Assembly (NCBI GenBank): GCA_965221205.1
Contig: OZ244870.1
Location: 1,038,065-1,102,064 of the forward strand
Length of the DNA: 64,000 nt
From: a bacterium
GTDB lineage: Bacteria > SM23-31
Reading direction: 5' to 3'
Below the pieces are notes generated by a model, which worked only from the letters and a program-made list of their open reading frames with translations, had not been told where the DNA came from and ran no database searches. Made by a program: the position numbers and the translations under genes. Below, in pieces: positions 1 through 42,017 of this stretch (its first letter is position 1; each line of letters opens with the position of its first letter).

Positions 1-55
1 AGGATTGAGTGTCTTACTGTGCCGTGATTTGATCTAACGAAAGGTTCAAACGCTG

Positions 56-2674
56 GTGTCGAACACATTACTGTTCAACGACCTCAAACATTCCGTAAGC
101 GGATGGCGGCGGTGCGGGTATCCTTGTGATGATTACCCGCTGATCGGCTCTATACTCGACTACCAAACGGAAAAGCACGAAGAAAAGCACGAAGACCGTT
201 CAACCCAGAAGTTTCTGCGCGATCCCCAGTTCCTTGCCCTTGAAGTGTACTGGTATGTCCGCATTGTGTTGAAAACCCCTCATATCATAGACCTTTACAA
301 ACATTACTACACGGAAGACAAAAAAGGCTTTTTTGATGCGATTGGCGTTTCCATACCAGGAGACGCTTTGGATTATGTGGAAATAGACGGGGTTATTAAA
401 AAAATCAAGGAAAATGAAGATTTTGTAAAAGAGAAGAAAATTCAAGCCCTGCATGAAGCCGCGAAACTGGGTTATCCAAGCTATATCCTCGCCCTGGCGA
501 TGGGCGCGGGTAAGACCGTGCTGATTGGCGCGATTGTTGCCATCGAATTCGCCATGTCCATGCGTTATCCCGAAGGCGAAATCAGGTTTATGAAAAATGC
601 CCTTGTCTTTGCTCCTGGCACAACCATTATCGAAAGCCTGCGGGAACTCAGCGGTATGCCCTACGAGAAGATTTTACCGCCCGACCTGAACCGTGATTTT
701 CTCGCCAATTTGAAGATTGAGTTTCCGGGCAAGGAAAAAGACATACAGGCACAGAGGGGCAGCAGTTATAACCTGATCGTCACGAATACCGAAAAAATCA
801 GTCTGCGCGCCAGACAGCGAAGCAACCAGGCACGACTGGCTTTTGAGCGCGAGGAAGTGCAGGCGAACCTGCTGCTCCAAAAAATCGCGAGTCTGCCGGG
901 TCTCGGAGTGTTTTCGGACGAAGCGCATCACACATACGGCAATACCTTCGACAAGTTAAAGCGAGTGCGGGAAACGATCAACTACATACACGATGAGCAG
1001 CCAATCGTTGCGGTCGTCAACACAACGGGAACGCCTTATTACAAGAAACAGCTCCTGAAAGAGGTGATTCTCTGGTATGGGCTTGGAGACGGCATCAGCG
1101 ATAACATTCTCAAAGACCTCAATAACGGGATTCACCAATACGACATCGGGGAGCAGTCGGAGCAGGGTGTGTTCCAGGATATCATCACGGTGTTTTTTAG
1201 CAGGTACGGTGATGTGTCGCTTCTCAATGGCGCGAAGGCGAAGATTGCTTTTTACTTCAAGACGCAGGAGCATCTGGAAACTTCCCGCGCCTTTATTGGA
1301 AGGGCAATGGCGGAGATGGGCGAGGATGTCTCCCAGATACTTGTGAACACGCAGAAATCCGGTGTCGCCGAGGTTGATGAATTCAGGAGACTGAACAATC
1401 CGACAAACCAGAAGCGGGTTATCCTGCTGATTGGCAAGGGTGTAGAAGGATGGAACTGTCCAAGCCTGTTTGCATGCGCCCTCATCAAGGAGCAGACGTC
1501 AAGCAGCAACTACGTTTTGCAGGCGGCGACACGATGTTTGCGGCAGGTTCCGGCAAACGCGCATTCGGCGAAGATATTCCTGGATTCCGGCAACGCAAAA
1601 ATTCTTGACAGGCAGCTGCAAGACAACTTCCGCACCGACCTTGACCGACTGAGTGCCGAAGCCGGGGAAAAGGAAACGGTCACCCTGCACATCCTCAAGA
1701 CGCAGCTCCCCACACTGGAAATCACCCGCACCGTGAAAAGAGCGGTCAGAAAGGGAACGCCATACGTGAACATTCACCTGGAAAAACCAACAGCGGAGGG
1801 CCCGCCCCCTATATTGCGCGGCATATTCACGCCCGATTTTAGCGGACCGGGAGAAATACTGATGCCCACGGGCGAAATGAAGGAGCTGCCCGCGGGAGAG
1901 CGCATTGTGGATTGTCATTCCGCCGCCTGGAAAATAGCCTCACGATACCATGTGCCGGTTATGCCGGTCCTTGAACAACTCAAACGTCTTTATCCAAACA
2001 GGGAAATGCCCCACGAGCATTTGTACGGGCTGTTCCGGCAGGTGGAAAAACAGGGAGCGAACTACGAAACAGTGGAAGACAAAATAACCGAAGCGATGGC
2101 ATTGATTCGGGTGCGGGATGAGAACGGAAAGGATAGTTTTGAAAAAGAAAACGATGTGTATGTTCACCGCTTGCGGGTGCTGAAACGGACTCATGACCGA
2201 ATGAAAGATAATGGTCTGTTGGCCGAAAGTGAGGAATATGAGGATAAGCACGATGTGAGTTTCCACTACACTCCCTACAACTTTGACAGCGGGCCTGAAC
2301 GTTCCTTCTTTCGGCAGATTTTGTCCGTGCTCAATGCAGCCCCCGATGATGTGGAGGCGTTTTTGTTCACGGGCGGACTCACAGACCAAAAGAAAACCGA
2401 CTTTCATTTTGAGTATCTCGGCGAGGACAAACGCTACCATCGCTATTTTCCCGATTTTGTGATTGTGAAGAAAACGGGCGAGTTTTATATTATCGAGATT
2501 AAGGCGGAGAGTGAGCGGGGAGATAAAACAGTGGAGGCAAAAGCCAAGGCAGTGGAACGGCTGCGAAATTTGCAGCCGGATAAATTCAAATATCAGGTGG
2601 TCTATACATCAACGACCATAACCCCACAGAACATCAAGCCCGTTACGGGCTGGATAAACGTACAGGAGAATTAA
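56..2674 (+). CDS. res: Type III restriction enzyme Res subunit (SF2 helicase with C-terminal nuclease-like region)
   Basis: 872 aa ORF with GTG start after in-frame stop at 35-37; Walker A-like ALAMGAGKT, DEAH-like VFSDEAHH, C-terminal PD-(D/E)xK-like FPDFVIV..EIKAE; homologous in architecture to the second Res at 33598-36411. Confidence 0.8.
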   Translation: MSNTLLFNDLKHSVSGWRRCGYPCDDYPLIGSILDYQTEKHEEKHEDRSTQKFLRDPQFLALEVYWYVRIVLKTPHIIDLYKHYYTEDKKGFFDAIGVSIPGDALDYVEIDGVIKKIKENEDFVKEKKIQALHEAAKLGYPSYILALAMGAGKTVLIGAIVAIEFAMSMRYPEGEIRFMKNALVFAPGTTIIESLRELSGMPYEKILPPDLNRDFLANLKIEFPGKEKDIQAQRGSSYNLIVTNTEKISLRARQRSNQARLAFEREEVQANLLLQKIASLPGLGVFSDEAHHTYGNTFDKLKRVRETINYIHDEQPIVAVVNTTGTPYYKKQLLKEVILWYGLGDGISDNILKDLNNGIHQYDIGEQSEQGVFQDIITVFFSRYGDVSLLNGAKAKIAFYFKTQEHLETSRAFIGRAMAEMGEDVSQILVNTQKSGVAEVDEFRRLNNPTNQKRVILLIGKGVEGWNCPSLFACALIKEQTSSSNYVLQAATRCLRQVPANAHSAKIFLDSGNAKILDRQLQDNFRTDLDRLSAEAGEKETVTLHILKTQLPTLEITRTVKRAVRKGTPYVNIHLEKPTAEGPPPILRGIFTPDFSGPGEILMPTGEMKELPAGERIVDCHSAAWKIASRYHVPVMPVLEQLKRLYPNREMPHEHLYGLFRQVEKQGANYETVEDKITEAMALIRVRDENGKDSFEKENDVYVHRLRVLKRTHDRMKDNGLLAESEEYEDKHDVSFHYTPYNFDSGPERSFFRQILSVLNAAPDDVEAFLFTGGLTDQKKTDFHFEYLGEDKRYHRYFPDFVIVKKTGEFYIIEIKAESERGDKTVEAKAKAVERLRNLQPDKFKYQVVYTSTTITPQNIKPVTGWINVQEN

Positions 2675-2676
2675 AC

Positions 2677-3066
2677 ATGAAAACGTAAAAGTTATTTATC
2701 AGTCATTCTTGGACGTATTCGGACGACTATGAGCGACTTAAGAAGTTACTATAGGAAAGAAGCTACTTTCATTTCAGAAAATACTCTGTGGAAAGTGATG
2801 AACCTAAAAATAATTGGGAAGAGATAGAACGTAATATAAAGTGGTCTACCGTCGTTGTCGTTATTGCAGGTGTGTATGCCAGTTATAGTTCATCAATAAA
2901 AAGAGAAGTGCGGTTGGCTAAACAAAATTCCAAGCCTACACTCGCTATTATTCCCTGGGGGAGTAACAGGACATCAGATATAAAAAATAAATGTGATGTT
3001 GTTGTCGGAGGGTACACCGACAGCATTGTCTCGGCAATAAAGGAATTGGCAAATGGATCAAGATAG
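2677..3066 (+). pseudogene. TIR-like (DUF1863/ThsB-like) domain protein interrupted by two in-frame stop codons
   Basis: Single reading frame from ATG 2677 to TAG 3064-3066 reads MKT*KLFISHSWTYSDDYERLKKLL*ERSYFHF..VVVVIAGVY..LAIIPWG; in-frame TAA at 2686-2688 and TAG at 2752-2754; FISHSW start and later hydrophobic core resemble TIR-like/ThsB architecture. Confidence 0.45.
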
Positions 3067-3508
3067 ACAGGAGCTTTTGGAAATCTATAAGCTTCACGCC
3101 GAACTTGCGGACAGGGTGAGCCAGAGACGGGAGGGGGCAAACAGGCTTTATGTAAGTCTGCTCGCGGGCATTTTTATTCTCCCTGCCGCTTTTCTAAAAT
3201 ATGGGACGGAAACCATTCCTGATTGGGTTATTGTGCTGGTAGCAGCTATTTTAGGCGGTTTTCTTTTTTTGTCGTGGTGTCTTATTATTCGTTCCTATTA
3301 TCGATTGGATAGGAGGAAATGCAAGGTATTGTGCGAGTTGGAAAAAAAACTTGTCTACCCTTTTTTCAAGCGCGAACGGGAGTTACTGGAAGAAGAAAAA
3401 AATATAAATAAATCTTGGGAGCTTATAGAGATTGAACATTTTCTTCCTTTTGGTTTCTTTATGGTTTTGCTGTACTTGTTTGTGTTTGGTGTCATCTATT
3501 TTTTTTAA
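3053..3508 (+). CDS. Small two-TM membrane protein, SLATT-like effector candidate
   Basis: 151 aa; N-terminal charged helix then two hydrophobic helices (LYVSLLAGIFILPAAFL and WVIVLVAAILGGFLFLSWCLII) plus hydrophobic C-terminus; ATG overlaps the end of the TIR-like ORF by 14 nt. Confidence 0.5.
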   Translation: MDQDRQELLEIYKLHAELADRVSQRREGANRLYVSLLAGIFILPAAFLKYGTETIPDWVIVLVAAILGGFLFLSWCLIIRSYYRLDRRKCKVLCELEKKLVYPFFKRERELLEEEKNINKSWELIEIEHFLPFGFFMVLLYLFVFGVIYFF

Positions 3509-3512
3509 TCAA

Positions 3513-5360
3513 ATGAACCCTCCCCTCAAAATAACCCCAGTAAAAGGCCGTCCGATGCTTCATTGGGTTGGCAAGAAGCCGCTCGATGTTGTCCGGCATT
3601 ATCCCGCGCAGTTGTGTGAAAGTGTTGGCGTTGAGAATCCACCTGTTGAGCCGTCTTATGCGGAATTCATCGAGAGCAACGCCAACCTGCTTTTTCACGG
3701 CGACAACAAGGAAATCCTGTCGTCTCTTTTGATCGCAGGGTTTCGGGGAAAGGTGGATTTAATCTACATCGACCCGCCGTTTGATTCCGGTGCGGATTAT
3801 GTCCGCAAGGTGAGGCTGCGCGGAGAGTCCGAAAGACTCGACGGTCAGGGCCACACTTTTCTGGAACAGGTGCAATACGAGGACATCTGGGCGAACGATA
3901 ACTATCTGCAATTCATGTATGAACGTCTGATTTTGATGCGGGAATTGCTGAGTGACACAGGAAACATCTTTCTGCAAGCTGATGACAAGAAAGGACACTA
4001 CTTGAAGATTCTTCTCGATGAAGTTATGGGAGAGAAAAATTACATCAATGACATTATTTGGCGCAAAGGAAGAGAAGGAGGCGGAGGCACGAAAGTTAAT
4101 CCTCCTCTGCCAACAGAATACCAAAACATCTATCTGTATGCCAAAAAACGCGACTCTCGAAAGTGGAACGCTCCACGCGGTCCCTATAACAAAAGCACTC
4201 TAAGTTCTTTGAAGAAAGATGAGAAGGGATGGTTTTATATGCGCGGTCGGATGGGACGACAGCCAAGACAATGGGAAATTGAAGCAGGCGTTGCGAGAAA
4301 AACTTATGTTAGTGAAAATCAGAACGAGTCAAGAGAGTCAGTTATACAAAGATTAACAACATTGGGAGGAAAGTTTGTCCTAATCGGGGACGTTTGGGAT
4401 TCTTATCTTATCAAAAATTCAACAAAAACCAATTACCCTACAGAGAAACCTGAGGCGTTGCTTGAGATTGCCATAAAATCGGGTACTGATGAAGGTGGAA
4501 TTGTTTTGGACTGCTTTTGCGGTTCCGGCACCACCGCTGCCGTTGCCGAGAAACTGGACCGCCGCTGGATCATGGCGGACATGAACAAGGGAGCGATTCA
4601 GACAACCATCAAAAGGTTGCAGGGTGTTATGGAGAAGAAAAGCAGCGACCTTGTAGAGAAAAACGGGCGCGGGCTTATTCACTATCGGGTGAACAACTAC
4701 GATTACGATGCCGCTGACCAGAATGAACTCAAGAAAATTATCGTTTCCAAATACGGCGTTCAGACAGACCGCAAGGATCTGTTTTTTGACGGAGTGGTTG
4801 GCGACGGGCAACTGGCGAAAATTGTTGACCTGGACAAACCGCTGACGCAACTGGACATTCAGATTATCAAGGATGAAATCGCACAGAACCGACCGGATGA
4901 GATGCGGGATATTACGGTTTTTTGCAACGGCTCGGAACTGGGAATTATGGGAGAACTTGCCAGGGAGAAAAACCCAATCAATACAATCACCGTCCGCGAC
5001 ATTCAACAGGATGGAATGATCACAAACCAGCCCGCCGAGGCAGAGGTTGAGATCAGCAAAAGCGGCGAAAGGGTGAAGGTGAAAATTGTCGATTACATCA
5101 GCCCCGCCATACAGGCCCGGCTGGAGAGTGACCGCACCATTTTTGATGAACGGATTGACGACTTCCGGGCGCAGATTGACTGCGTGCTCATCGACACCGA
5201 TTACAACGGTGAACATTTCAGAATAGTGGAAAGCGACCTGCCGGAGAAAAAAACCGATTTCATCAGGGCTAAGTATGAATTCACGCTGCCCCGTGCTGGC
5301 GCGAAAGTGGCGGTGAAAATCGTGGATATGCTCGGTGAGGAAGTTTTGACGGTCAAATGA
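3513..5360 (+). CDS. mod: Type III DNA methyltransferase Mod (beta-class N6-adenine type)
   Basis: Motif IV IYIDPPFDSGADY precedes motif I LDCFCGSGTT; start taken at ATG 3513 (MNPPLK) just after the stop of the upstream ORF at 3506-3508, rather than the ORF-track start 3432. Confidence 0.8.
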   Translation: MNPPLKITPVKGRPMLHWVGKKPLDVVRHYPAQLCESVGVENPPVEPSYAEFIESNANLLFHGDNKEILSSLLIAGFRGKVDLIYIDPPFDSGADYVRKVRLRGESERLDGQGHTFLEQVQYEDIWANDNYLQFMYERLILMRELLSDTGNIFLQADDKKGHYLKILLDEVMGEKNYINDIIWRKGREGGGGTKVNPPLPTEYQNIYLYAKKRDSRKWNAPRGPYNKSTLSSLKKDEKGWFYMRGRMGRQPRQWEIEAGVARKTYVSENQNESRESVIQRLTTLGGKFVLIGDVWDSYLIKNSTKTNYPTEKPEALLEIAIKSGTDEGGIVLDCFCGSGTTAAVAEKLDRRWIMADMNKGAIQTTIKRLQGVMEKKSSDLVEKNGRGLIHYRVNNYDYDAADQNELKKIIVSKYGVQTDRKDLFFDGVVGDGQLAKIVDLDKPLTQLDIQIIKDEIAQNRPDEMRDITVFCNGSELGIMGELAREKNPINTITVRDIQQDGMITNQPAEAEVEISKSGERVKVKIVDYISPAIQARLESDRTIFDERIDDFRAQIDCVLIDTDYNGEHFRIVESDLPEKKTDFIRAKYEFTLPRAGAKVAVKIVDMLGEEVLTVK

Positions 5361-30396: not shown

Positions 30397-31718
30397 AGAA
30401 AGGATATCAGGGAATTATCACATTTGCAAGTATGTTCATGTTAGCCACTGCGGCATTCGGACAATATGCTGTAACAAAGGCAACGATCGTTACGGTGTCG
30501 GGAGGTACCATAACGAATGGAACAATCGTGATTGAAGGAGACCGAATCGCCGTTCTTGGGACAGATATTGTGCTTCCGCAGGGAATCGAAGTTATTGATG
30601 CTACAGATTTGTATGTCTATCCCGGAATGATCGGTACAAACACCAATCTTGGCCTTACAGAACTGGGTGGTGTGACGCAAACTCAAGACCAAAGAGAAAT
30701 TGGAACCTTCAATACCTTTATCCGTGCATCGCAGGGAGTCAATCCACATACAATATTGAAAGGTATTGCCCGCTGGAATGGCGTAACGTCTGCAATTACT
30801 GTTCCCCGAACAGAGAAACAGGGAGTCTTTGCAGGACATGAAGTGCTTCTGAATTTAGACGGATGGAGTGTTGATGAAATGACGGTACAGGACCCGGTAG
30901 CGATGCAGATGACATTTCCGGACTTTAACCGGAATTCAGGTGGTAATAATGGAGAAGATCTTCCCCGACAGCTGGAAGCCCGCGGCGGCAGAAAGAACAG
31001 GCGTAATCGTGCCGAAAAAGTCCTGTCGGACGTTAAAGAATTGTTCGAAAAAACACGGCGCTATTCCCAGGCTCAGGCCGATTTTGAAGCACGAATACGC
31101 TCGTCATATCCGGTTACCGATCTGACGTTGGAAGGTTTGAAACCGGTTGTGCGGAAAGAAGTTCCGTTAACGATTACCGTGAATGGTGTCGAAAACATCC
31201 GTAAAGCGATCACATTTGTAAAGGAGACAGGAATCCGTGCGGTTTTTGCAGGTGCACAAGACGCCTACAAAATAGCAGAAGAAATCGCCGAAGCTGAAAT
31301 ACCGGTTCTCTATTCAGGTCTGCTCACTAAGGCTGATCAATATAATCCCTACGACCTCCATTTGACGGTCCCGTCAGTACTCCATAAAGCCGGAGTCACA
31401 ATTGCAATGTCGATAGCAAATGCATCTGATTTACAGAATCTCCCGTTTATGGCAGGAATGGCAGCCGCATACGGACTGCCGAAAGATGTTGCTTTGAAAA
31501 CAGTGACGCTTTATCCTGCTGAAATATACGGAGTGGATGATAAGCTTGGCAGCATCGAGGTGGGAAAAATGGCAAACATAGTTATTGCAGATGGTGACCT
31601 GCTCGAGCCACGCACAAAGGTCATTCATGAATTTATCCGTGGTCAGAAAGTCGACCTGTCAGATAATTACCAGTTTCAGCTCTACGAAAAACACCGAAAA
31701 CGCCCGGCTAAACATTGA
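30393..31718 (+). CDS. Amidohydrolase family protein, likely non-catalytic paralog
   Basis: Start taken at ATG 30393 (MKKGYQG), overlapping the upstream stop by 4 nt; PGMIGTNTNLG replaces the HxH metal-binding motif. Confidence 0.7.
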   Translation: MKKGYQGIITFASMFMLATAAFGQYAVTKATIVTVSGGTITNGTIVIEGDRIAVLGTDIVLPQGIEVIDATDLYVYPGMIGTNTNLGLTELGGVTQTQDQREIGTFNTFIRASQGVNPHTILKGIARWNGVTSAITVPRTEKQGVFAGHEVLLNLDGWSVDEMTVQDPVAMQMTFPDFNRNSGGNNGEDLPRQLEARGGRKNRRNRAEKVLSDVKELFEKTRRYSQAQADFEARIRSSYPVTDLTLEGLKPVVRKEVPLTITVNGVENIRKAITFVKETGIRAVFAGAQDAYKIAEEIAEAEIPVLYSGLLTKADQYNPYDLHLTVPSVLHKAGVTIAMSIANASDLQNLPFMAGMAAAYGLPKDVALKTVTLYPAEIYGVDDKLGSIEVGKMANIVIADGDLLEPRTKVIHEFIRGQKVDLSDNYQFQLYEKHRKRPAKH

Positions 31719-33597
31719 AACTTATTTATTACATAGTACGACAACAAATAATCGATGATACCAGAATTAAATTCCTTGTGGGGCAAAGATAAATTTTATA
31801 AATTTGAATATTGTGTAGAATCTATTGAGTAACTTATTGGCAAGCTACATATCAATTATGACAAGGAATACTTTATGACGAACGAGCTCACTTTTAGACT
31901 TCGTTGTCTCTGGGCAGTTTGCGCACTAAAATGGTGGTGACATTTAATTTTTCCTAAAAGCATCACAATTTCTGATATACCATGGAAACCATTGGAAGGC
32001 TATTCCAAATTCTAAGCGAAAAAATAGTAAATTCCCTTTTAACGGTAGTTACCCTCATAAAATGATCCACTGATTAACGTTATACAATATTGACCATAGT
32101 TGCCGGGAGTATGTACATTAAATTTGGCATCACAGAATAGCAACAATATCTTAATACATTTAAATCATATCTATTTTTCTCAAAGAACCTCAGAGTTTTC
32201 ATACTACAAAGAGAGATCAATAAATTGAATATCGTTTTTTCAATTTTACATAGAACAATTGGGAGGATATATCATATAAATCATCTCTTTTTTCGCAGTC
32301 AAGACCCCGTTCATAGGCAGTTTCCGAATCATACGTATAAAGCGATTTGAAATGATACCTGTTACTCCGTATCCGAAATAGTATCTTAATTCTTTTTTTG
32401 TCTGCTTCGCTCTTCAGAAACCGGATCGATTATCCCATGCTTTTCACAAAAAATAGAAAATGAGAGTACTGCTGCAAGAACGAGACTCCTCCCGATACTG
32501 CCAATTTTTTTAAAGTAACCTATGGACTGTTTCAAAAGGTCCTGAGCGAAGAAGACCGTGACCGCCTCAAGCAGGACCAGGTTCCCAATCGTCATGCCGC
32601 CATACACGGCTTGGTGGTCTATTCCTCACCGCAGAACAGTTTGAATGCGATTTTCATAGCCGATTACATTTTTCGGATTGTTACTCCCGCCATGTTCCCT
32701 CCATCACCTCGGCAATGATGCTCCCGCACCGATCAGCATTGCATAAAGATATCGCCAATCGAATCTCTCCTGCAATACCGATTTGCAACTCCTGAACCCT
32801 TGAAAGCCTGTCCGGGGCTGGAGGGTTGCGTAACCGCTCCTTTGTGCAACCCCTCCCCGGACGGGAAGCAAAACTGAGGTAATCTGTAAGGCCATGAAGA
32901 ATCCGGGATGTTATCACCACTTGCGCGTGGACTGGGTAGGAAAGTCGTCCACCCAGTCGATCGCGCTGTGCGGCGTCGAGGGTGAAGACATCGGGGCAGG
33001 ACAGGCACTCTGCCCCGACTGCTGTGGGTTGGGACCGGAGAGCCTACGCGAGTTATTTGACAAGCTCCGGGTGACAGCCCTTCCGCGGTAAAAGCGAAGA
33101 TGGAGGTGCTTCGAAGTCTGGGGGTGCAGGTGGATATGCAGGATCGGTCGCAATTCAACTAAAAGAGTGTCTCTACGGCCCTAGGAGGCCCTGCTTACCT
33201 CCTAAAAGCCCCTCTTTTTCTGTGTTTCCGATTTCTCTGGTTTCTACTTCCTGTTCTTCCACAGAAGTAGTCGAGGTTTTGCGCGAGTTGAAGAAGATTA
33301 AGCTGGCCTGGCCGAAGCTGAACTACGCGACGGCTTCGGGCGTCTTGATTCTGCATCCCTTGACACCGATCATCGCGCCGTTAGATCAAGGCCAGCTAGG
33401 CCGGCGGCCGCTCATCTCCCCGTTTTCAACGCAGGGATCGCCCCTGACGCCTCCGTACCCGATTCATCTTTAGATGATTTCGGCCGGCATCGTCACGAAA
33501 TTCTTCTCGGTATATCGGGATACAGGGCATGGACCTATGTCGTTGCGATCGAACCACATCGCGTTCTGCAACCATACTGTCGTCGACCGCTCGGCTT

Positions 33598-36411
33598 TCA
33601 AGCGCCGCCAATGCCCGCGTGGCGTGAAAGAATGCTCTGAATATCACCGGGGGCTCTCGATATATCCCCTGCCCAGCGGCCAAAGCCGCCATGCGCGTTG
33701 ACGGCGGTGATCCATTCGTCGAGAAACCGGCGTTTGGTTCGGTCCTGTTCGCTGTCCTGTCCCTTGGTTTCCAACACGAGTATGTCGCCGGACCTGAACC
33801 GGATGAGGAAGTCGGGACGGTACTTCCGCACCACGCCGCGATGGACGTAGAACACTTCGAAGCCCAGGTGATCGTTTTTCACCCAGGCGGCGACCTCGGG
33901 GGCGTGATCGAGGGCAAAGGCTTCCGACGATTCCCAGGTGCTGTCATAGACGCAGAAATTGATATGGCTGCGCGCCGTGGGCTCGCAGGGCCTGCCGGTG
34001 TACCATGTCCCCATGTCGCCGGTTGAACGGATGGGCCGGTCCCGGTCGAACACCGGCTCCAGACTCTCGGTGTTCTCGAAGCGGATGGCTTCCCAGATAT
34101 GCTGGACCACCTTGGTCATGTTGAGCGTGATGATGAGACGGCGCTTGAGATCGTCGCGGAGGAATAGTGCAGGCGTGATGCTGATTCTGTCCGAACGGAT
34201 GAATTGATCGACCAGCCGTACCAGTTGGGCCAGCAGGAATGCTTTGCCTCCCCGCCAGTTCTTTTGCATTTGGTCGTAAACGTCCCGCGCGGTCTCAAAG
34301 ATAATCCGCTGTGTCCGAAACTCCCGCGCCAGATTCTCCAAGTCTATAGCCTCGATCTTCGTCACGTCCGGTTTGCCGGCGACGATTGGGGCAAGCTCCG
34401 CGATTCTTACGGTCCTGCCAACATCGAGTTCCAGGCTTGCCACCTTGTTCCAATCCAGGGAGAGCTGCGGTCGGTATACGTGGTCGATGCGGATCACGTT
34501 CGGCCAAGAGATTTCGAAAGCCGCTTTGCCCGTTACCGGCTCAATAGCGGTCTTTGGCGTTGGCGGCGGTGGAGGGCCGCTCTCTCCACCTTCGTGGGGC
34601 AGAAAAGTGAAGGGCACGCCGAAAATATTGACGTACTCCGGCTCGAACAAACCGTTGTTCGGGTTCACATCGTAAGATGTGCGGCGCAGGCCGCGTCCGA
34701 CGACCTGTTCACAGAGAAGCTGGCTGGTGAACGCGCGGAGGCCCATGATGTGTGTCACGGTCTTGGCGTCCCATCCCTCGGAAAGCATCCCGACGGAGAT
34801 CACATTCTGGATCAGCTCGCCCGTTTTCCCAGGTTGGCCCACGGTGTTCACCTGCGAGCGCAGCAGCTCGGCTTGCTGTTTTTTGGTTAGCTTGCGTGAG
34901 GGGCCGCCGTTCGCAGCTTCTTCGCTCTCGCCAGCGCCGATCTCCGCGATCGGCTCCTCGGCGGCCTCGGCCGCGTCAAGTACCCTTGAGTCGATATGAA
35001 GGGTTCGCGCCGGGTCGCAAAGCTCGCTGATACGGACTCTGCTGTGGTCGAATGCGTACTTGATCCGGGCTGCGGTCTCGGTGCGATTGGCGACGGTGAT
35101 CATCACTGGCGGGGTTTTGGACCCGTCCTTTCTCCATTGCTTAGATGTCTCGCGCCAGTCGAAGCCGAGAAGGCAGTAGCCATTGACCACCAGGTCCGGC
35201 AGCGGTTCTTCGGGCTTGGCCCGCCGGTTTAAGTCGTCCTTGACCTCGGCATCGTTGTAGATGTGGTAGAGGCGGGATTTGTAGGTCGTGACGTCAGGTA
35301 CCGCATCGTCGCGAATCACGACGCGTGGGGTCTTGACCAAACCGGACTCGATGGCGTCGTTCAGGCCGAAGTCGCTCACGATCCAGCCGAACAGCGCCTC
35401 CTCGGAACTCCGTTTACCCGATGGCGCGAAGGGCGTGGCGGAGAAGTCGCAGCAAGCGAGAATGCCCCGCGCCCTGTCGATCCGATCCAGGCCGCCAACC
35501 CACTTGGTCGCTTCCTCGATTTCATCCCTGGCAACACCTTTGACCTTGGATTCGGCGGGAACGCGCCAGGCGTGATGCGCTTCGTCATTGATGACAAGAA
35601 TGTTCCGGGCGTTCGCCAAGTCGCCCAGAACCTCGCGGACATAGGCTTCGTCGCTCTTGGATCTCCGTTTATCTACGCTGCGTTTTCCGGCAATCCTCTC
35701 ATCGGTCTCCCAATTGAGTGCGTGCCAGTTGCGGACCACGACCTTGCCTTGGCGCAGCTTGTCGAACAGGGACGACGGAACGACGTGGAAAGCTTTGTAG
35801 TAGTTCTCCGCATGAGACGGTTCCAAGACGGCCAGACGGTTCTTGACCGTGAGTCCCGGAGCGATAACCAGCACGTTTCGGGCGAATCGCGCATCCTGGG
35901 AATAGGTGACCTTGTTCAGGATATGCCAGGCGATGACCATGGCCATGACGACGGTCTTGCCCGAGCCGGTCGCCATCTTTGCGCACAACCGCCCAATCGG
36001 CCCGCCATCGGAAGGGATGTCAACGCCAATTTTCTCGGCCGCTGACGCTTCGGCAAGCCAGATCAGCGTCTCGACAGCCTCCAGTTGGCAGAAGAAAAAT
36101 CGACGGTTATCGAACTCCTCCGGGTTCGTCCAGTGCTCCAACAGCCGCTTCGTAATTCCCGTGACACCCGGATACCCGGCTCCACGCCACGCCCGTACAC
36201 GCGGACGAATCCGGTTGACCAGGGGAATCTCGACGAAATGGCCCGGATCATCGAACGATCGGGAGCCCTCCGAGGCAATGACGTATCCGGCCGGCCGGCG
36301 GCCTTGCGCACGGTCGAAAAGGCGCGTCTGGCGGTCGTAGCTCCAGTGTTGGCCCGGCTCCTCGTAGGGAGAGTTGATAATCAGGCGATCGATGGTTGTT
36401 TGCGCCATCAT
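33598..36411 (-). CDS. res: Type III restriction enzyme Res subunit
   Basis: Walker A ATGSGKTVV, DEAH box VINDEAHH, helicase C-terminal motifs; start ATG 36411 (MMAQTTIDRLIINSPYEEP) overlaps the hepT stop (ATGA); inside the GC-rich island. Confidence 0.85.
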   Translation of the reverse strand: MMAQTTIDRLIINSPYEEPGQHWSYDRQTRLFDRAQGRRPAGYVIASEGSRSFDDPGHFVEIPLVNRIRPRVRAWRGAGYPGVTGITKRLLEHWTNPEEFDNRRFFFCQLEAVETLIWLAEASAAEKIGVDIPSDGGPIGRLCAKMATGSGKTVVMAMVIAWHILNKVTYSQDARFARNVLVIAPGLTVKNRLAVLEPSHAENYYKAFHVVPSSLFDKLRQGKVVVRNWHALNWETDERIAGKRSVDKRRSKSDEAYVREVLGDLANARNILVINDEAHHAWRVPAESKVKGVARDEIEEATKWVGGLDRIDRARGILACCDFSATPFAPSGKRSSEEALFGWIVSDFGLNDAIESGLVKTPRVVIRDDAVPDVTTYKSRLYHIYNDAEVKDDLNRRAKPEEPLPDLVVNGYCLLGFDWRETSKQWRKDGSKTPPVMITVANRTETAARIKYAFDHSRVRISELCDPARTLHIDSRVLDAAEAAEEPIAEIGAGESEEAANGGPSRKLTKKQQAELLRSQVNTVGQPGKTGELIQNVISVGMLSEGWDAKTVTHIMGLRAFTSQLLCEQVVGRGLRRTSYDVNPNNGLFEPEYVNIFGVPFTFLPHEGGESGPPPPPTPKTAIEPVTGKAAFEISWPNVIRIDHVYRPQLSLDWNKVASLELDVGRTVRIAELAPIVAGKPDVTKIEAIDLENLAREFRTQRIIFETARDVYDQMQKNWRGGKAFLLAQLVRLVDQFIRSDRISITPALFLRDDLKRRLIITLNMTKVVQHIWEAIRFENTESLEPVFDRDRPIRSTGDMGTWYTGRPCEPTARSHINFCVYDSTWESSEAFALDHAPEVAAWVKNDHLGFEVFYVHRGVVRKYRPDFLIRFRSGDILVLETKGQDSEQDRTKRRFLDEWITAVNAHGGFGRWAGDISRAPGDIQSILSRHAGIGGA

Positions 36412-36602
36412 GCAGTCTCCGGTAGCACCAGCGGTTCGATGAGGTTGATGAGACGGGGAATGTCCTGTTGTGCGGTCTTCCACACATGCTTCAGGTCAAC
36501 CTCGAAATAGGCGTGTACGAGGCGATGTCGCATCCCAGCGAACTCCACCGCACCCCGCGCTGCCAGCAGCATGTCGAGCAGACAGGCATCGTCATGCCGC
36601 AT
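36408..36602 (-). CDS. HEPN-domain toxin (HepT/DUF86-like), short form
   Basis: R-x4-H-x-Y motif in GMRHRLVHAYFEVDLKHVW; start overlaps the mntA stop. Confidence 0.55.
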   Translation of the reverse strand: MRHDDACLLDMLLAARGAVEFAGMRHRLVHAYFEVDLKHVWKTAQQDIPRLINLIEPLVLPETA

Positions 36603-36903
36603 AGATCGTCTCGGCGGATTGGAGGATTGCGGCACGGCGAATGTAGTTTCGGCTCTGTTCGACCGCCGTGCGTTCGAACAGGTCTACCTCCCGGCCGAGT
36701 ATCCGAGCCAGATCGGCCTGCATTCGCGCCATGTCCAGAAGTGTGTGGCGCGCTTGTTGCTCGAAACGCACCAGTACATCCACATCGCTTTCCGGTCCGA
36801 AGTCGTCCCGTAGCACGGAACCGAACAGCGACAGTTCGACGATCCGCCAGCGTTTACAAAAGTCGGCTATCTCGTCTCGCGGTGTGTCGATATGTACACT
36901 CAT
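36592..36903 (-). CDS. Nucleotidyltransferase (MntA-type antitoxin)
   Basis: GS-x9-DxD motif LFGSVLRDDFGPESDVDVLV; start taken at internal ATG 36903 immediately after the upstream stop at 36906-36908. Confidence 0.7.
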   Translation of the reverse strand: MSVHIDTPRDEIADFCKRWRIVELSLFGSVLRDDFGPESDVDVLVRFEQQARHTLLDMARMQADLARILGREVDLFERTAVEQSRNYIRRAAILQSAETIYAA

Positions 36904-36905
36904 GC

Positions 36906-37748
36906 CTATAACACTTGGTTCGCGTCGACATTGAAGCCGACACTCTTTAGCTCCCGAATAAGTCTTAGCTTCCAACCATCCGAGCCGTCCAACGGAATGT
37001 AAATGACTCCATCATAGTCCGAGGGCGTCTCTACGTTACCTTTCACCAAAGTGCAGACTCGCTCTCGACCGAGTTTGCCAATGAAGTACCCGAATTCGAA
37101 AATCACGTTCTGTCTCGCCCGTGGCTTTTGATTCTTCTTGTCGTCCGCAAGCGCGCCCACGTCGTCCGGGGTCAGCAGGACCACCGCGAACCCAACTTGC
37201 GCATGTTCCTCAAACTTCTCGATGATCGTGCGGCCCTTATTCGGTTGTTCGTGCAGGATTACCGGTTCAAGATCCAGCCTTTCTAGGAATCTTGCAACCG
37301 TTCTCCGAGCAGATTCGTCGTGGCCATGGATGACGAAAACTCTGTTACTGCTCGATCGTTTGTCGATTCGTTCCGAGTCAAGCGCTGAAATGTCACTTTG
37401 ATCTATGGGTTGCGTTGGCGTCTGGTTTTCATCAGACCAATACTCCTCGATCTCCTCGATCATGGATTCGAGTACTGCGGCCGCTGATTCCAAGCCTTTC
37501 ACATAAACTTCCTGGCGTTCTGACTCAGGCGGCTCAAAGTAGGCAGGGGCAGGAGAAAAACGGATATTTTTGAAGTCTCCAATGTGGGCCGACTTGCTCT
37601 CAAACGTGTTGGTGATAGCGACCTCTGTGTTTCTTTGCCACTTATCAAACTCAGGTGAGCGGTACTTTAGGTTTTTTAATTTGGGTATTGCATCCAATGC
37701 TCTCCGCAGGCGCTCCAGACCCTTGGCTTTTATTGGTCGCGCCATCAC
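36906..37748 (-). CDS. TIR-like nucleotide-binding protein (COG4271/PF10137-like C-terminal domain) with unknown N-terminal domain
   Basis: C-terminal block RVFVIHGHD..FAVVLLTPDD..ARQNVIFEFGYFIGKLGRERV..PSDYDGVIY matches the TIR-like family pattern recalled from memory; start overlaps the Mod stop. Confidence 0.6.
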   Translation of the reverse strand: MMARPIKAKGLERLRRALDAIPKLKNLKYRSPEFDKWQRNTEVAITNTFESKSAHIGDFKNIRFSPAPAYFEPPESERQEVYVKGLESAAAVLESMIEEIEEYWSDENQTPTQPIDQSDISALDSERIDKRSSSNRVFVIHGHDESARRTVARFLERLDLEPVILHEQPNKGRTIIEKFEEHAQVGFAVVLLTPDDVGALADDKKNQKPRARQNVIFEFGYFIGKLGRERVCTLVKGNVETPSDYDGVIYIPLDGSDGWKLRLIRELKSVGFNVDANQVL

Positions 37749-40133
37749 TCCACCTCCACCACTTTTAAGCTCTCGATGCCGCGGTCGTCGACGATCTTGA
37801 CGGTGATGCGCCGGTGTCCGCCGACTTCGAAGGGGAGGGAGGACGTCCCGCGATAGGCCTCAACCAGGTCTGTGTCGATCTCGGCCTTGAGATTCCGGGC
37901 GAGTTTTGCCCAGCCGTCCCTGCTGCCCGCCATGGGAAAAAACACCTGGCGGGGAAACAGGCTGCGCCCGTCATAGTCCGGATCGAGCATCCACATAGCG
38001 ATCTTGTCCGAGCCGCCCGATTCCACGTTGCCGGTCTTGGTGTTGTAATAGTCGAATCCTTGGACCGAGACGCGGAACTTGCCCTGGTCTTCGCCTTCCT
38101 TGATCCGCTCGACTTCCATGTCCGGCTGGCCGATCAGCCAGAAGCTCTCGTTGCTTGTCCGCTTCTTCTTGAGGTCGTCGGTCAGCAAATCGGCGTTCAT
38201 CTGCACTTTTAACAAGGTGGCGCCAGGCCAGCGGGTTTCGTCGATGTCCTTGGGACGCTTCGGGATCGAACTGGAAGGCCGCAAAGACGATAACCTTGGG
38301 TCGTGGGGCAAGACTTTGTGCCTCCTCGATGGCGCGTGCCACCTGCCGCTGCTCCAGCGGTGCATGATCCGGCCCAAACGAGACCACGAGCCGTTCCGGA
38401 TTGCGGGTGGTAGCGGGGTCTTGAAAGCCGTCCGTCCCCGCATCGCCGGGCCGCGTCTCGCCCTCGGCGTGCAGCCATCGGGTTGCGGGCAGCGGTTCCA
38501 GCCGAGCAAATGAGATTCGCTGCCCGTCCTTGCCGCGAATGCCGGTCTTGAACAACTCGTCGCGCCAGTCGCCTTGGCGCACGGTCGGTCCAGTACGCGC
38601 CACGGAGGTGTCTGCCGGCAGTGCCTCGGACTCTTCGATGTCGTCCAGGGGCTTCACCGTTGGCGCGGGAACCGCTTCCACGGTGAACGGTCCGGTGACA
38701 CGGGCTTTGCGCCGGTTGATCTCCGGTTGATCGTAGAGCGTGGTCTCGTTGGGCGGTTCGTCATAGCCCAAAGTCTTCGCCGATACGGTGGCGACGCTGT
38801 GGTAACGAAAACCGGCCCCAACTCCTTCGTCAGGATGGGCCAGTTTGTAGTAGTGATAGTTCGCCGTCATGAGGCGCTGCTTGGCCAAGACTGTCGCGAC
38901 GCGCGATGTGTCGCAGGTGATCCATCTTCTGCCCCATTGCTCGGCGACGTGGGCAGTGGTACCGCTGCCGCAGGTTGGGTCAAAGACCAAATCGCCCGGA
39001 TCGGTGGTCATCAGGATGCAGCGCTGAATCGCCTTGTTAGCGGTCTGGACCACATAGTGCTTGGCACTGGGCGACATTGGTGCTGCCCAGATGTTGTTGA
39101 TTGGTCTCCCCGGAACCTCATCTTCATACCGTTTCCACATCAGTGACGTCTGGTTCCCCAGGGCTTCCAACCGACCTAGTTCGGCGAGTCGGTCTATTCC
39201 CTCTTTGGAAATGCGCCATTGGCTGTCCCTGCTACAACGAAAGACGCGACCGTCATATTCATAGGGTTCGGAGCGCGCAACCGTGGAAACACCCTGCGAT
39301 TCAAGGGGCATACGGCGATAAATGCGCCCGCCCTCCGGCAAGTGCTTGTCTGGGTCGAAGCGTTCTTCGGGGGTGGGTTTACGGCACTGGCCGTCAGGCA
39401 GTTCGACACTCACATATGAACTGAAAAACTCGATCACCTCGGCCCGCGTGAGCGACTCATACAATTGCCGGTATTTCACAAGCCCTCGGTCTCTGGCATA
39501 CCACAACAGATAATCCGCAACTTGGGGCAAGGTCTTAGCAGGACTGTTGCCGGTGGTCGCGTAGGAAATGGTTGCCATCCGGTTCTCTGCGCCGAAGATG
39601 TCGTCCATGACTAGGCCGACGCGGTGGATATTTTCGTCGCCGATCTGCACGAAGACACTGCCGCTCTCATGCAGCAGCTCGCGCGCCAACAGCAGGCGGT
39701 CGCGCAGATAGGCGAGATACGAATGGATGCCGAGTTCCCAGGTATCGCGGAAGGCGCGGATCGTCTCCGGCTCCTGGGTCAGGTCCTCGTCCCTGCCGTC
39801 GGTCACGGTGCGCTGGTTGACGAATGGTTGGAAGTTCGAGCCGTAGCGGATGCCGTAGGGCGGGTCGATGCGCTCATGGACGTGCAGGGATACGGTGGGG
39901 ACTTCGAACGAGGTGTGCTCGTCCTTCCCGGCCCAGACGAGCTGCGGATCCAGGTGCGGATCGTAAGCGTAGGTTGTCTTGCCCGCATCCTTGTCGGTCT
40001 CCGGTGTCACCAATCCGACAGGCGGGTTGTTCACACGCTCCTTGCCAGTGTGCGTGTAGTTTTCAACCTCACGCTTTTTTCTGTTCTTCGGTCCCGCTAT
40101 GTCGTTCCCCTTAACTTCGGTCTCTGTCTCCAA
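37745..40133 (-). pseudogene. mod: Type III DNA methyltransferase Mod, apparent +1 frameshift near 38252
   Basis: ORF 37971-40133 carries DPPY, NIWAAP and FDPTCGSGTT motifs, then turns into Arg-rich nonsense after ..FQFDPEA; ORF 37745-38509 continues in another frame with a Mod-like C-terminus; junction at a GGG run (plus 38252-38254). Confidence 0.7.
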
Positions 40134-40172
40134 GAGAGTGGAGTGATTTCAACCTCACGTAATATATCTGCC

Positions 40173-40490
40173 TCAACTTTTGAGGGCACGGTCAGCATCA
40201 AGGTTTGTTATTTTTTTCATACGTCCACTCTCATCAAAGAATTTTCCAATATCATACGTAAGTGAGTTTTTCATTACCTTCAATACATCATCAGCCTGAA
40301 GTTCAACTCGTTCTTTTCGTTCCTCCGGAGCATTCGAAATGAAAGTTTGAATCAGAGATTTTCTCAGGTTTTCATAATCTATTTCACAAGAAGTTTTTTG
40401 CTATACCGAGAAGGCACGGCCGCTGCAGATGCATTAAGATCAACAAGACACTCTTTCACATTCACACACTGGACAATATACGTAGAATAA
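40173..40490 (-). pseudogene. Phage terminase small subunit (TerS-like) remnant, frameshifted
   Basis: Minus-strand frames read ..LVDLNASAAAVPSRYSKK then TSCEIDYENLRK..NAPEERKERVELQADDVLKVM..; frame switch at a T6 run (plus 40394-40399). Confidence 0.4.
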
Positions 40491-40595: not shown

Positions 40596-42017
40596 CTAAA
40601 TCTTTCCACATATTTTCCACATATATTTATTATCTGTTTTGGGTAATGGTTTTTCATATCCTCTTTCCTGCAGCAATTTGTTGAGTGTTCTTTTTGTCAC
40701 TGAGTACTCATTGTTTTCATCACACCAATGTTTGTACTTTTCATAGACCATTTTAACCGGTGTCATTACACATGCAACATTTTTGCAACAGTCACTTAAA
40801 AAACTACCAATAACATCAGAATCTGAACGATATTCTTTTGTTGCATTTTCAACGGATGCTGGAATTATCACCTTCCACATATATAATAATCCCGGAATCC
40901 AGTTATCGCCCAATTCAGGATTCCAGGCAGCTCATTTCTGAATATGTTGAGCAATTCTGATTTAGGTCTTCGATTATTTTTTCGGAATTCCAACGGTAAA
41001 CGGGAGCTTACGCATTCTACGCCAGAAACCCTCAGTCGGTTGCGTGTACCCGTGGTTCATCATTTCCAAACATCCACAATTTATGTACTGGCTTAAATTC
41101 GAAAGTATATCGTTCCAAATGTGCCATTTCTTTGAACTATGGTTGTACCGTATTTGGTCGCCGAAATTGAATGCAAGAAAATCAGCGCTCCAAGTGTCAG
41201 TTGGTGAAAACTTGTCAGAATCATTCGTGGGTTTCAACGGCCGACCATTTTTCTTATCTTCAGGTTCTGGCTTCGGCTTATCGGACGGTTTCCAGAATGG
41301 AGTATCTCTGACGAGTTCGGTCAGCTGGTCTTTGGTATCACCTGCTTTTATCCAATCTGTGATGTCCTGCTTCGGCTGGCAGGTCCGGGAGTCTCAAAAT
41401 TATTATGTCTGCGGCAGATCTATGAAGTTTTAAGGCGATATCTTCGGAACGCAATCGTCCAGGGTCATCGTTATCCGGAATAATAACAACGTTAGCTTTA
41501 TGCAGCCAGGTAGAAAAGGCGGATTCCCAATTTCCGGCGCCACTGGAATTCGCCGCCGCGAACCCGAGAGATTCGAGCGTGTGTACATCCTTCTCGCCTT
41601 CGACTATGAATATAGACCTGCCTTTTTTAACAGCTTCCAATATCTGGGGGAGTCGGTATATAACATGCTTAACACCACGGATATTCCAGATCAACCCTCC
41701 GGGGCCATCAGGTTTTCTCAGTCTGAATTGTTTATCTTTCAGGCGGCACGCCTGGTACAATAAAGCGCCGTTTTCATCGATGTAATCATATGGTTTCTAT
41801 GATATTTGACTTTCTACATGTTCAGACCTATGGACTTAACTATATCTTCCGCAGGACAGCCTGCATGACAGCGCATGAGAACCTTACCTTCTTTGTCGGC
41901 AACGGATAAAGAGGGGGTCTTATCGTCATGGTATGGACAATGTGCTTGATAAGATCCGTTTGATTGTTGTTTTGGGTTTTTTAAGTGAGATAGTACATGG
42001 TCAATACACGCAGTCAT
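40596..42017 (-). pseudogene. Phage/plasmid DNA primase (CHC2 zinc finger + Toprim + C-terminal domain), fragmented
   Basis: Four ORF-track pieces: 41814-42017 (CPYHDDKTPSLSV..CHAGC), 41338-41760 (Toprim IFIVEGEKDV..VVIIPDNDDPG), 40974-41237 and 40596-40913, in frames 2/0/2/2. Confidence 0.6.

Follow-up and report, generated by a model that had tools for sequence, protein, structure and literature searches.

Genes for toxins, HEPN proteins among them, have been described inside type I and type III restriction-modification (R-M) operons, with a layered defence on the PrrC model as the proposed role, and HEPN families associated with minimal nucleotidyltransferases (MNT) cluster with such operons (Makarova 2012, PMC3506569; Anantharaman 2013, PMC3710099). 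The candidate families PDC-S35 and PDC-S09 stem from Payne et al. (bioRxiv 10.1101/2024.01.29.577857), who screened loci of Hma, BREX, DISARM and type I R-M systems by 'guilt-by-embedding', and a 2025 review presents PrrC and PARIS as guardians of R-M systems (PMC12707154). Here we describe a locus in a 64,000-nucleotide stretch of bacterial DNA (contig OZ244870.1 of assembly GCA_965221205.1, positions 1,038,065 to 1,102,064; hereafter the window), in which genes of five families follow each other on the minus strand in the order mod, TIR-like, mntA, hepT, res (33598-40100). In our assessment, this is probably a horizontally acquired, type III-like R-M cassette with a slot for cargo between mod and res, occupied by separable TIR-like and MntA/HepT modules, and it is decaying in this genome.

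The surveys of Makarova and Anantharaman concern the same general phenomenon, but not this cassette, its TIR-like partner or a cargo slot with a Res protein of the BPTD_3080 family. Similarly, PDC-S35 and PDC-S09, which are like the TIR-like protein and MntA of the window, were defined by nesting within multi-gene defence systems; these candidates were however taken from RefSeq BREX, DISARM and type I R-M loci, not from type III-like ones, and a TIR-like gene plus MntA/HepT between mod and res does not occur in that paper. PrrC, in the type Ic system EcoprrI, resembles the cargo of the window in being an abortive-infection effector nested in an R-M operon, and commonly serves as the model of a second defence line (PMC3710099, PMC12707154). 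It is an ABC-ATPase/HEPN fusion without antitoxin that is inhibited by the restriction enzyme, whereas the HEPN gene of the window is accompanied by mntA and the other cargo is TIR-like. Moreover, EcoprrI is of type Ic and the window system is type III-like, and any regulatory link in the latter would be hypothetical.

As in the type VII pair HepT/MntA of Shewanella (SO_3166/SO_3165), an MNT gene overlaps a downstream HEPN gene in the window, and both the GSx10DxD and the Rx4H motif can be recognized. In type VII systems, HepT toxicity is neutralized through AMPylation by MntA. In contrast to that pair, the window hepT lacks 49 of ~113 codons, neither protein reaches its NCBIfam equivalog cut-off of 60 bits (41.3 for MntA, 25.6 for the HepT remnant), and the genes are nested in an R-M operon. 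Cap12 (TIR-STING) of CBASS and PycTIR of Pycsar share with the TIR-like protein the PF10137 domain and a conserved glutamate motif, and are among its best structural matches. Assignment of the TIR-like protein to Cap12 or PycTIR was nevertheless rejected, given a helical N-terminal bundle where no STING or cyclic-nucleotide-binding domain is found, the lack of a cyclase gene in the locus or nearby, and an NCBIfam Cap12 score of 39.6 versus the required 450.

No description was found in the literature of precisely these five genes in this order within a type III-like system, or of a BPTD_3080 cargo slot. Searches on PDC-S35, BPTD_3080, COG4271 and 8xMP returned nothing relevant, and a recent survey of TIR systems in bacteria is silent on embedding in R-M loci. 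An initial annotation of this DNA, made from the sequence alone, had supposed that the gene order was undescribed; this stands for the precise order, but the embedding of toxin and defence genes in R-M operons and the PADLOC candidates themselves were already known. To that theme, the cassette with TIR-like plus MntA/HepT is a new addition.

The five gene identities proposed in the initial annotation were borne out by Pfam, PADLOC and NCBIfam profiles. The res gene (33598..36411, minus strand, as are all cassette genes) is intact and encodes a 937-aa protein with a superfamily 2 helicase and a C-terminal nuclease. It matches PF04851 and scores 1126 bits (cut-off 800) with NF046055, 'BPTD_3080 family restriction endonuclease'; residues 803-908 form a TnsA-like nuclease region. 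The mod gene (37745..40100), a pseudogene, specifies a type III-like N6/N4 DNA methyltransferase of ~846 aa if intact, with a DPPY motif methyltransferase domain (PF01555, 94.3 bits, cut-off 26.7) and a match to the PADLOC MTase_III model PDLC03632 (E 1.3e-105). Both genes lie in one unit, on the same strand, with three genes between them and gaps of at most 2 nt. The portion shared with other genomes extends over 33598..40160. G+C content is 59% in the block ~32700-40150 as compared with ~44% in the surrounding DNA, and because of this difference the block appears to be foreign DNA that was acquired horizontally.

Sibling loci were obtained through a Res homology search, and lesions were called by alignment with homologous cassettes on other contigs (L006, L005, L002 and L029, later also L084 and L085). 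The mod gene of the window is split over two overlapping open reading frames (ORFs) in different frames, 37971-40133 and 37745-38509. It carries three lesions, all limited to the window when compared with L084, L085, L006, L005 and L002: loss of the start codon, a 225-nt deletion and a +1 frameshift. At the position of the start codon (40098..40100), ATA is found where all comparators have ATG (alignment A3: GAACGACATAGCG in the window, GAACGCCATGGCG in four comparators). The deletion is in frame and comprises 75 codons. In intact homologues, the deleted segment is flanked on both sides by the 10-nt direct repeat ATCGACCCGC, one copy of which is left at the junction (39860..39869). As a result, HERIDP is joined to PYG and the 75 conserved codons immediately before DPPY are gone; the PADLOC profile match begins at position 192, versus 76 for the intact Mod of L006. 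Finally, one extra C in a CCC run (38252..38254) shifts the frame by +1, the window reading GCGTCCCAAGG and four comparators GCGTC-CAAGG or equivalent. Programmed frameshifting was rejected since every comparator reads in a single frame, and phase variation since the run consists of only three to four C residues. An intact, translatable mod, which membership of the type III R-M systems requires, is thus missing from the window, and its mod would not be expected to yield a working methylase.

The second broken gene is hepT, for a HEPN RNase toxin. What is left (36408..36602, 64 aa) lacks 147 nt, or 49 internal codons, relative to L006, L085 and L005 (junction 36538/36537), and consists of 23 N-terminal and 41 C-terminal residues, roughly the middle two-fifths being absent. 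The match with PF01934 (43.6 bits) is confined to profile positions 82-118 of 120, although the Rx4H motif is kept (RHRLVH). In the intact form, MntA/HepT would by domain content and gene overlap be a standard type VII pair. In the window, the antitoxin gene does lie upstream of and overlap the toxin gene (by 11 nt, as in homologues), but the complete HEPN toxin domain of type VII systems is not there, and a working HepT toxin is not expected. When the remnant was compared with that of L084, every substitution proved to alter the protein (dN 0.051, dS 0), which, with numbers this small, fits a gene freed from protein-level constraint. The adjoining mntA (36592..36903, 103 aa) is intact and encodes a minimal nucleotidyltransferase antitoxin with matches to PF01909 (54 bits, cut-off 21) and PDC-S09 (E 3e-24), in which the GSx10DxD motif reads GSVLRDDFGPESDVD.

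The TIR-like gene (36906..37745) is likewise intact and encodes 279 aa, with an N-terminal helical bundle and a C-terminal PF10137 TIR domain (144.4 bits, threshold 24.7). Residues 9-279 align with positions 5-262 of the 264 in the PDC-S35 model PDLC05005 (E 2e-91). An AlphaFold model, with a mean predicted local distance difference test (pLDDT) score of 73, has three parts: a helical bundle modelled with confidence (7-103), a linker that is disordered and, at 136-270, a TIR fold of the flavodoxin-like type. The best Foldseek match of the protein was the TIR domain of Cap12 (E 1e-5), followed by SARM1 and SPARTA; for the helical bundle, no structural match was found with Foldseek. In a profile alignment, RQNVIFE(F/L)G of the TIR-like family is placed with RDNVVFEFG of Cap12 and RDNVHLEFG of PycTIR. 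E218, within FE(F/L)G, is invariant in 22 homologues and aligns with the glutamate of FEFG in Cap12 and LEFG in PycTIR; we take it to be the catalytic glutamate known from TIR NADases. The protein is therefore a putative NAD+-consuming effector, the trigger of which would be sensed by the N-terminal domain.

The other three genes, TIR-like, mntA and res, have their full length in the window and retain all family-invariant residues. Type III enzymes methylate one strand and cleave DNA in an ATP-dependent manner, and their Res subunit relies on Mod for DNA site recognition. Because of this reliance, an intact res can be tolerated beside a dead mod, and the Res of the window should be harmless and idle. 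The TIR-like protein may still act alone. The cassette as a whole would be a decaying copy of a widespread, horizontally moving type and the locus a relic in this genome.

The order of these losses can be read from contig L084, the flanks of which are 94-99% identical to those of the window, so that the contig covers this chromosomal site in a closely related strain. Its Res protein is 98% identical to that of the window (res DNA 97.5%) and its mod is intact (839 aa called); for this reason, the three mod lesions are considered recent and specific to the window lineage. The 147-nt hepT deletion, on the other hand, is common to the window and the separately assembled L084 and must then be older than the mod lesions. 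L084 in addition lacks most of mntA. DNA identity between both loci is 96-97.5% from within mntA through res, but on the mod side it drops to 70-84%, with 77% for TIR-like (69% at the protein level) and 70% for the target-recognition region of mod. The breakpoint lies inside mntA, between 36655 and 36873. High identity on the res side combined with low identity of TIR-like and the target-recognition region indicates that parts of the cassette have been exchanged by recombination. Ratios of non-synonymous to synonymous substitution (dN/dS) against L084 ranged from 0.10 to 0.30 over the genes, with 0.14 for res. The site is a defence island subject to rapid change.

All four tight junctions reported in the initial annotation were recovered. 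The mod stop TGA (37747-37745) overlaps by 4 nt with a GTG at 37748, giving the GTGA originally noted, and by 1 nt with the ATG at 37745, which is the start used by homologues and by database entry P0001 (279 aa). The TIR-like stop TAG (36908-36906) is followed after 2 nt by the mntA ATG at 36903. The hepT ATG at 36602 sits 11 nt within the 3' end of mntA (stop 36594-36592), and the res ATG at 36411 overlaps the hepT stop (36410-36408) as ATGA. Thus the view of five coupled genes holds as far as tight packing in one unit between mod and res is concerned; two of the five, mod and hepT, are broken. The same junctions recur in related cassettes: TGATG between mod and TIR-like, TAG plus two bases or ATGA between TIR-like and mntA, the 11-nt overlap of mntA and hepT, and ATGA or TAATG between hepT and res.

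For translational coupling itself, comparative support was obtained. Four independent deletions have affected mntA and hepT: that in hepT shared by the window and L084, that in mntA of L084, that in L002, and one creating an mntA-hepT fusion in L086. All four leave an unbroken ORF that runs from an ATG coupled to the upstream stop to a stop overlapping the res ATG (window 36408-36602; L084 6718-6990; L002 11114-11218; L086 6849-7001). An arbitrary deletion keeps the frame with a chance of 1/3, which for four out of four gives ~1%. In a fifth event, in L029, hepT was removed altogether and the mntA stop is located 1 nt before the res ATG. From this pattern, translation that reaches the res start seems to be important for making Res and to have been selected for, which would support translational coupling better than the overlaps alone. 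Loss of a toxin gene with conservation of ribosome flow into res would be evidence for coupling drawn from sequence only.

Recurrence of the cassette was followed in two ways. A scan for TIR-like genes with one genome per species yielded 80 loci. Cassettes obtained in this manner are biased to hold a TIR-like gene, a bias from which loci found through Res alone are free. The arrangement mod, TIR-like, mntA, (hepT), res was present in contigs labelled Nitrospira/Nitrospirales (L004, L009, L011), Alphaproteobacteria (L005), Bryobacterales (L006), Gammaproteobacteria (L027) and Chloroflexi (L029), and likewise in metagenome contigs L002, L003 and L085; in L085, L006 and L005 all five genes are apparently intact. 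Going by the names of their bins, many of the related contigs may come from symbionts of sponges or corals. The mod-res interval was filled in 15 of 15 cassettes of this Res clade, which come from five other phyla or classes, with varying mixes of TIR-like, MntA/HepT and an AAA ATPase pair. Of the six loci found by means of Res alone, each contains cargo and five contain a TIR-like gene. From mod to res, L085 holds TIR-like, mntA and hepT; L084 TIR-like and a hepT remnant; L086 an AAA_15/21 ATPase gene, a 182-aa gene, TIR-like and a hepT remnant; L087 the same ATPase and 182-aa genes and TIR-like; L088 mntA and hepT; and L089 TIR-like. Elsewhere, DUF2806, additional MntA/HepT pairs and an ATPase pair located after mntA were found as further cargo. 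Since the combinations vary between cassettes, the modules appear to be separable, which argues for a cargo slot between mod and res rather than for a five-part machine.

The TIR-like family is moreover of great size (of 8000 candidates that were scored, nearly all had E<=1e-5), and most of its members reside outside R-M loci. Outside the Res clade, the full-length genes have mixed neighbours, many of which are housekeeping genes, with a small number of type I HsdR genes and of genes for other TIR proteins or ATPases. Exact look-ups of the TIR-like and Res proteins of the window returned no contig. In L007, L012 and L021, TIR-like, mntA and an intact hepT are present without res, and only the last few mod codons precede TIR-like; the cargo is able to persist after loss of the restriction genes. 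The TIR-like protein nearest to that of the window (75% identity) is encoded in L002. The mod of that contig (7416-10001) was called as two pieces in the same frame, 615 and 236 aa, which implies an in-frame stop codon, and its hepT counts only 34 codons. L002 may be another decaying copy, or contain an assembly error.

Taken as a sequence of events, our preferred reading runs as follows. The Mod methyltransferase and the BPTD_3080-family Res helicase-nuclease would act as carrier, with the interval between their genes as slot. In this copy, the slot would have received a stand-alone TIR-like protein, predicted to consume NAD+, and the MntA/HepT toxin-antitoxin pair. Through overlapping or abutting stops and starts, ribosomes would be handed from gene to gene down to res. 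An ancestor common with the sibling strain would first have lost 49 internal codons of hepT; later, the mod start codon, the 75 codons before DPPY and the reading frame would have been lost. Mod and HepT would as a consequence be non-working and Res idle, with TIR-like and mntA intact. A role of the cargo in defence is likewise presumed.

Several points weigh against this reading. The presence of cargo in every sampled member of the Res clade and the conserved overlap between mod stop and TIR-like start would also fit a functional link between cargo and enzyme, and the cassettes coming from the TIR-like search were, as said, bound to contain that gene. The single-base frameshift in mod could be an assembly error. 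There is also a small chance that, with the 75-codon deletion being in frame, a shortened Mod is made from an upstream TTG at 40133 as far as the frameshift.

An integrated system, in which Mod/Res holds the TIR-like protein and/or HepT inactive and a phage block of restriction releases NAD+ loss and RNA cleavage, the whole being one machine, is unlikely but survives best among the alternatives. It is favoured by the cargo between mod and res in 15/15 cassettes and the TIR-like gene in 5/6 loci found by Res, by the conserved overlap of mod stop and TIR-like start, by the mod 3' end that the decayed loci L007, L012 and L021 still keep ahead of TIR-like, and by the precedents of PrrC with EcoprrI and of PARIS (PMC3710099, PMC12707154). 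Modules are however gained and lost independently and in varying order, most members of the TIR-like family do not lie beside R-M genes, and between the sibling loci TIR-like has been swapped relative to res (69% versus 98% protein identity). In addition, MntA/HepT has its own antitoxin and needs no restriction enzyme as inhibitor. In the window, the layer coupling restriction to HepT that the initial annotation had envisaged cannot work, as mod and hepT are disrupted. A narrower version, restricted to intact cassettes, takes the TIR-like protein as a dedicated guardian that is proportioned to Mod by coupling, silenced by Mod/Res, and destroys NAD+ upon inhibition by phage. Because the cargo pattern is modular, this is quite improbable; if true, it would be the first TIR-based guardian of an R-M system, and the mod-res slot a general docking site for guardians.

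Addiction, also raised in the initial annotation, would have MntA/HepT serve mainly to stabilize a mobile cassette through the death of cells from which it is lost, with no role in phage defence. Such behaviour is classic for toxin-antitoxin pairs, the cassette is mobile and of foreign G+C content, and insertion sequence elements or resolvase genes flank it in L085 and L002. The idea is weakened by the deletion or truncation of hepT on at least four independent occasions with retention of the cassette, and by L089 and L087, which hold no toxin-antitoxin pair at all; it also leaves the TIR-like gene unexplained, and we regard it as very unlikely. That errors of sequencing or assembly produced the lesions, and that the window in fact holds five intact working genes, is hardly credible: the frameshift does lie in a short C run and related long-read metagenome contigs include low-coverage, visibly erroneous ones (such as L003 at 2x), but mod has three lesions of three kinds next to the separate deletion in hepT, the 225-nt deletion falls exactly between 10-nt direct repeats as in real slippage, the hepT deletion is found in the separately assembled L084 as well, and an independent Logan assembly has exactly the same sequence for a ThsB-like pseudogene elsewhere in the window (2677-3066).

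Should the modular reading hold, restriction systems of this Res clade would be natural carriers of sets of accessory defence genes between distant bacterial phyla, and the mod-res interval would be a good hunting ground for candidate defence genes such as PDC-S35, the AAA ATPase pair and DUF2806. The locus of the window should not be annotated as a functioning restriction system.

The cassette is bordered by amidohydrolase genes on one side and by a decayed primase on the other. The latter (40596-42017, minus strand) is represented by four short ORFs, with a CHC2 zinc finger, a Toprim domain, an unassigned piece and a Pox_D5 C-terminal domain, and corresponds to a phage or plasmid primase, i.e. 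a mobile-element gene adjoining the cassette. A tRNA scan gave no hits at the island borders, and a repeat search gave no direct or inverted flanking repeats marking an insertion. Promoter and terminator scans returned no minus-strand sites within the operon, with overall counts no better than in shuffled sequence. Rfam gave no match in the whole window at gathering thresholds, nor in 31700-33650 at E<=1, and ORFs in the GC-rich tail (32681-33692) had no match in Pfam. The ~1.2 kb downstream of res (32356-33597), G+C-rich from ~32700, lacks a convincing ORF and has no hit in Pfam or Rfam; only the sibling contig L084 has it too (93% identity), and the other cassettes do not. Genes specific to L084 were placed against window positions 32038-32356 and 40160-40199. 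L084 carries, upstream of mod, a gene for a 684-aa AAA_15/21 ATPase (OLD/AriA/GajA-like) and, downstream of res, HNH and AIPR (AbiU/MzaE-like) genes, all of which are missing in the window.

On the plus strand of the window, at 56-5360, embedded genes are found in another type III-like R-M locus, in the order res (56-2674), ThsB-type TIR, 8xMP and mod (ending at 5360). The ThsB-type TIR gene (2677-3066) starts 2 nt past the res stop and is a pseudogene with two in-frame stops (TAA at 2686-2688, TAG at 2752-2754); it is followed by a gene for an 8xMP membrane protein (3053-3508, PF24838). The independent Logan assembly L090 is 100% identical over window positions 1-5330, and an intact four-gene version occurs in L093. 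Embedding of a TIR-family gene in a type III-like system, followed by decay, has thus taken place twice in this genome. In L092, the TIR/8xMP pair lies outside any R-M locus and adjoins a TIR/SLATT pair.

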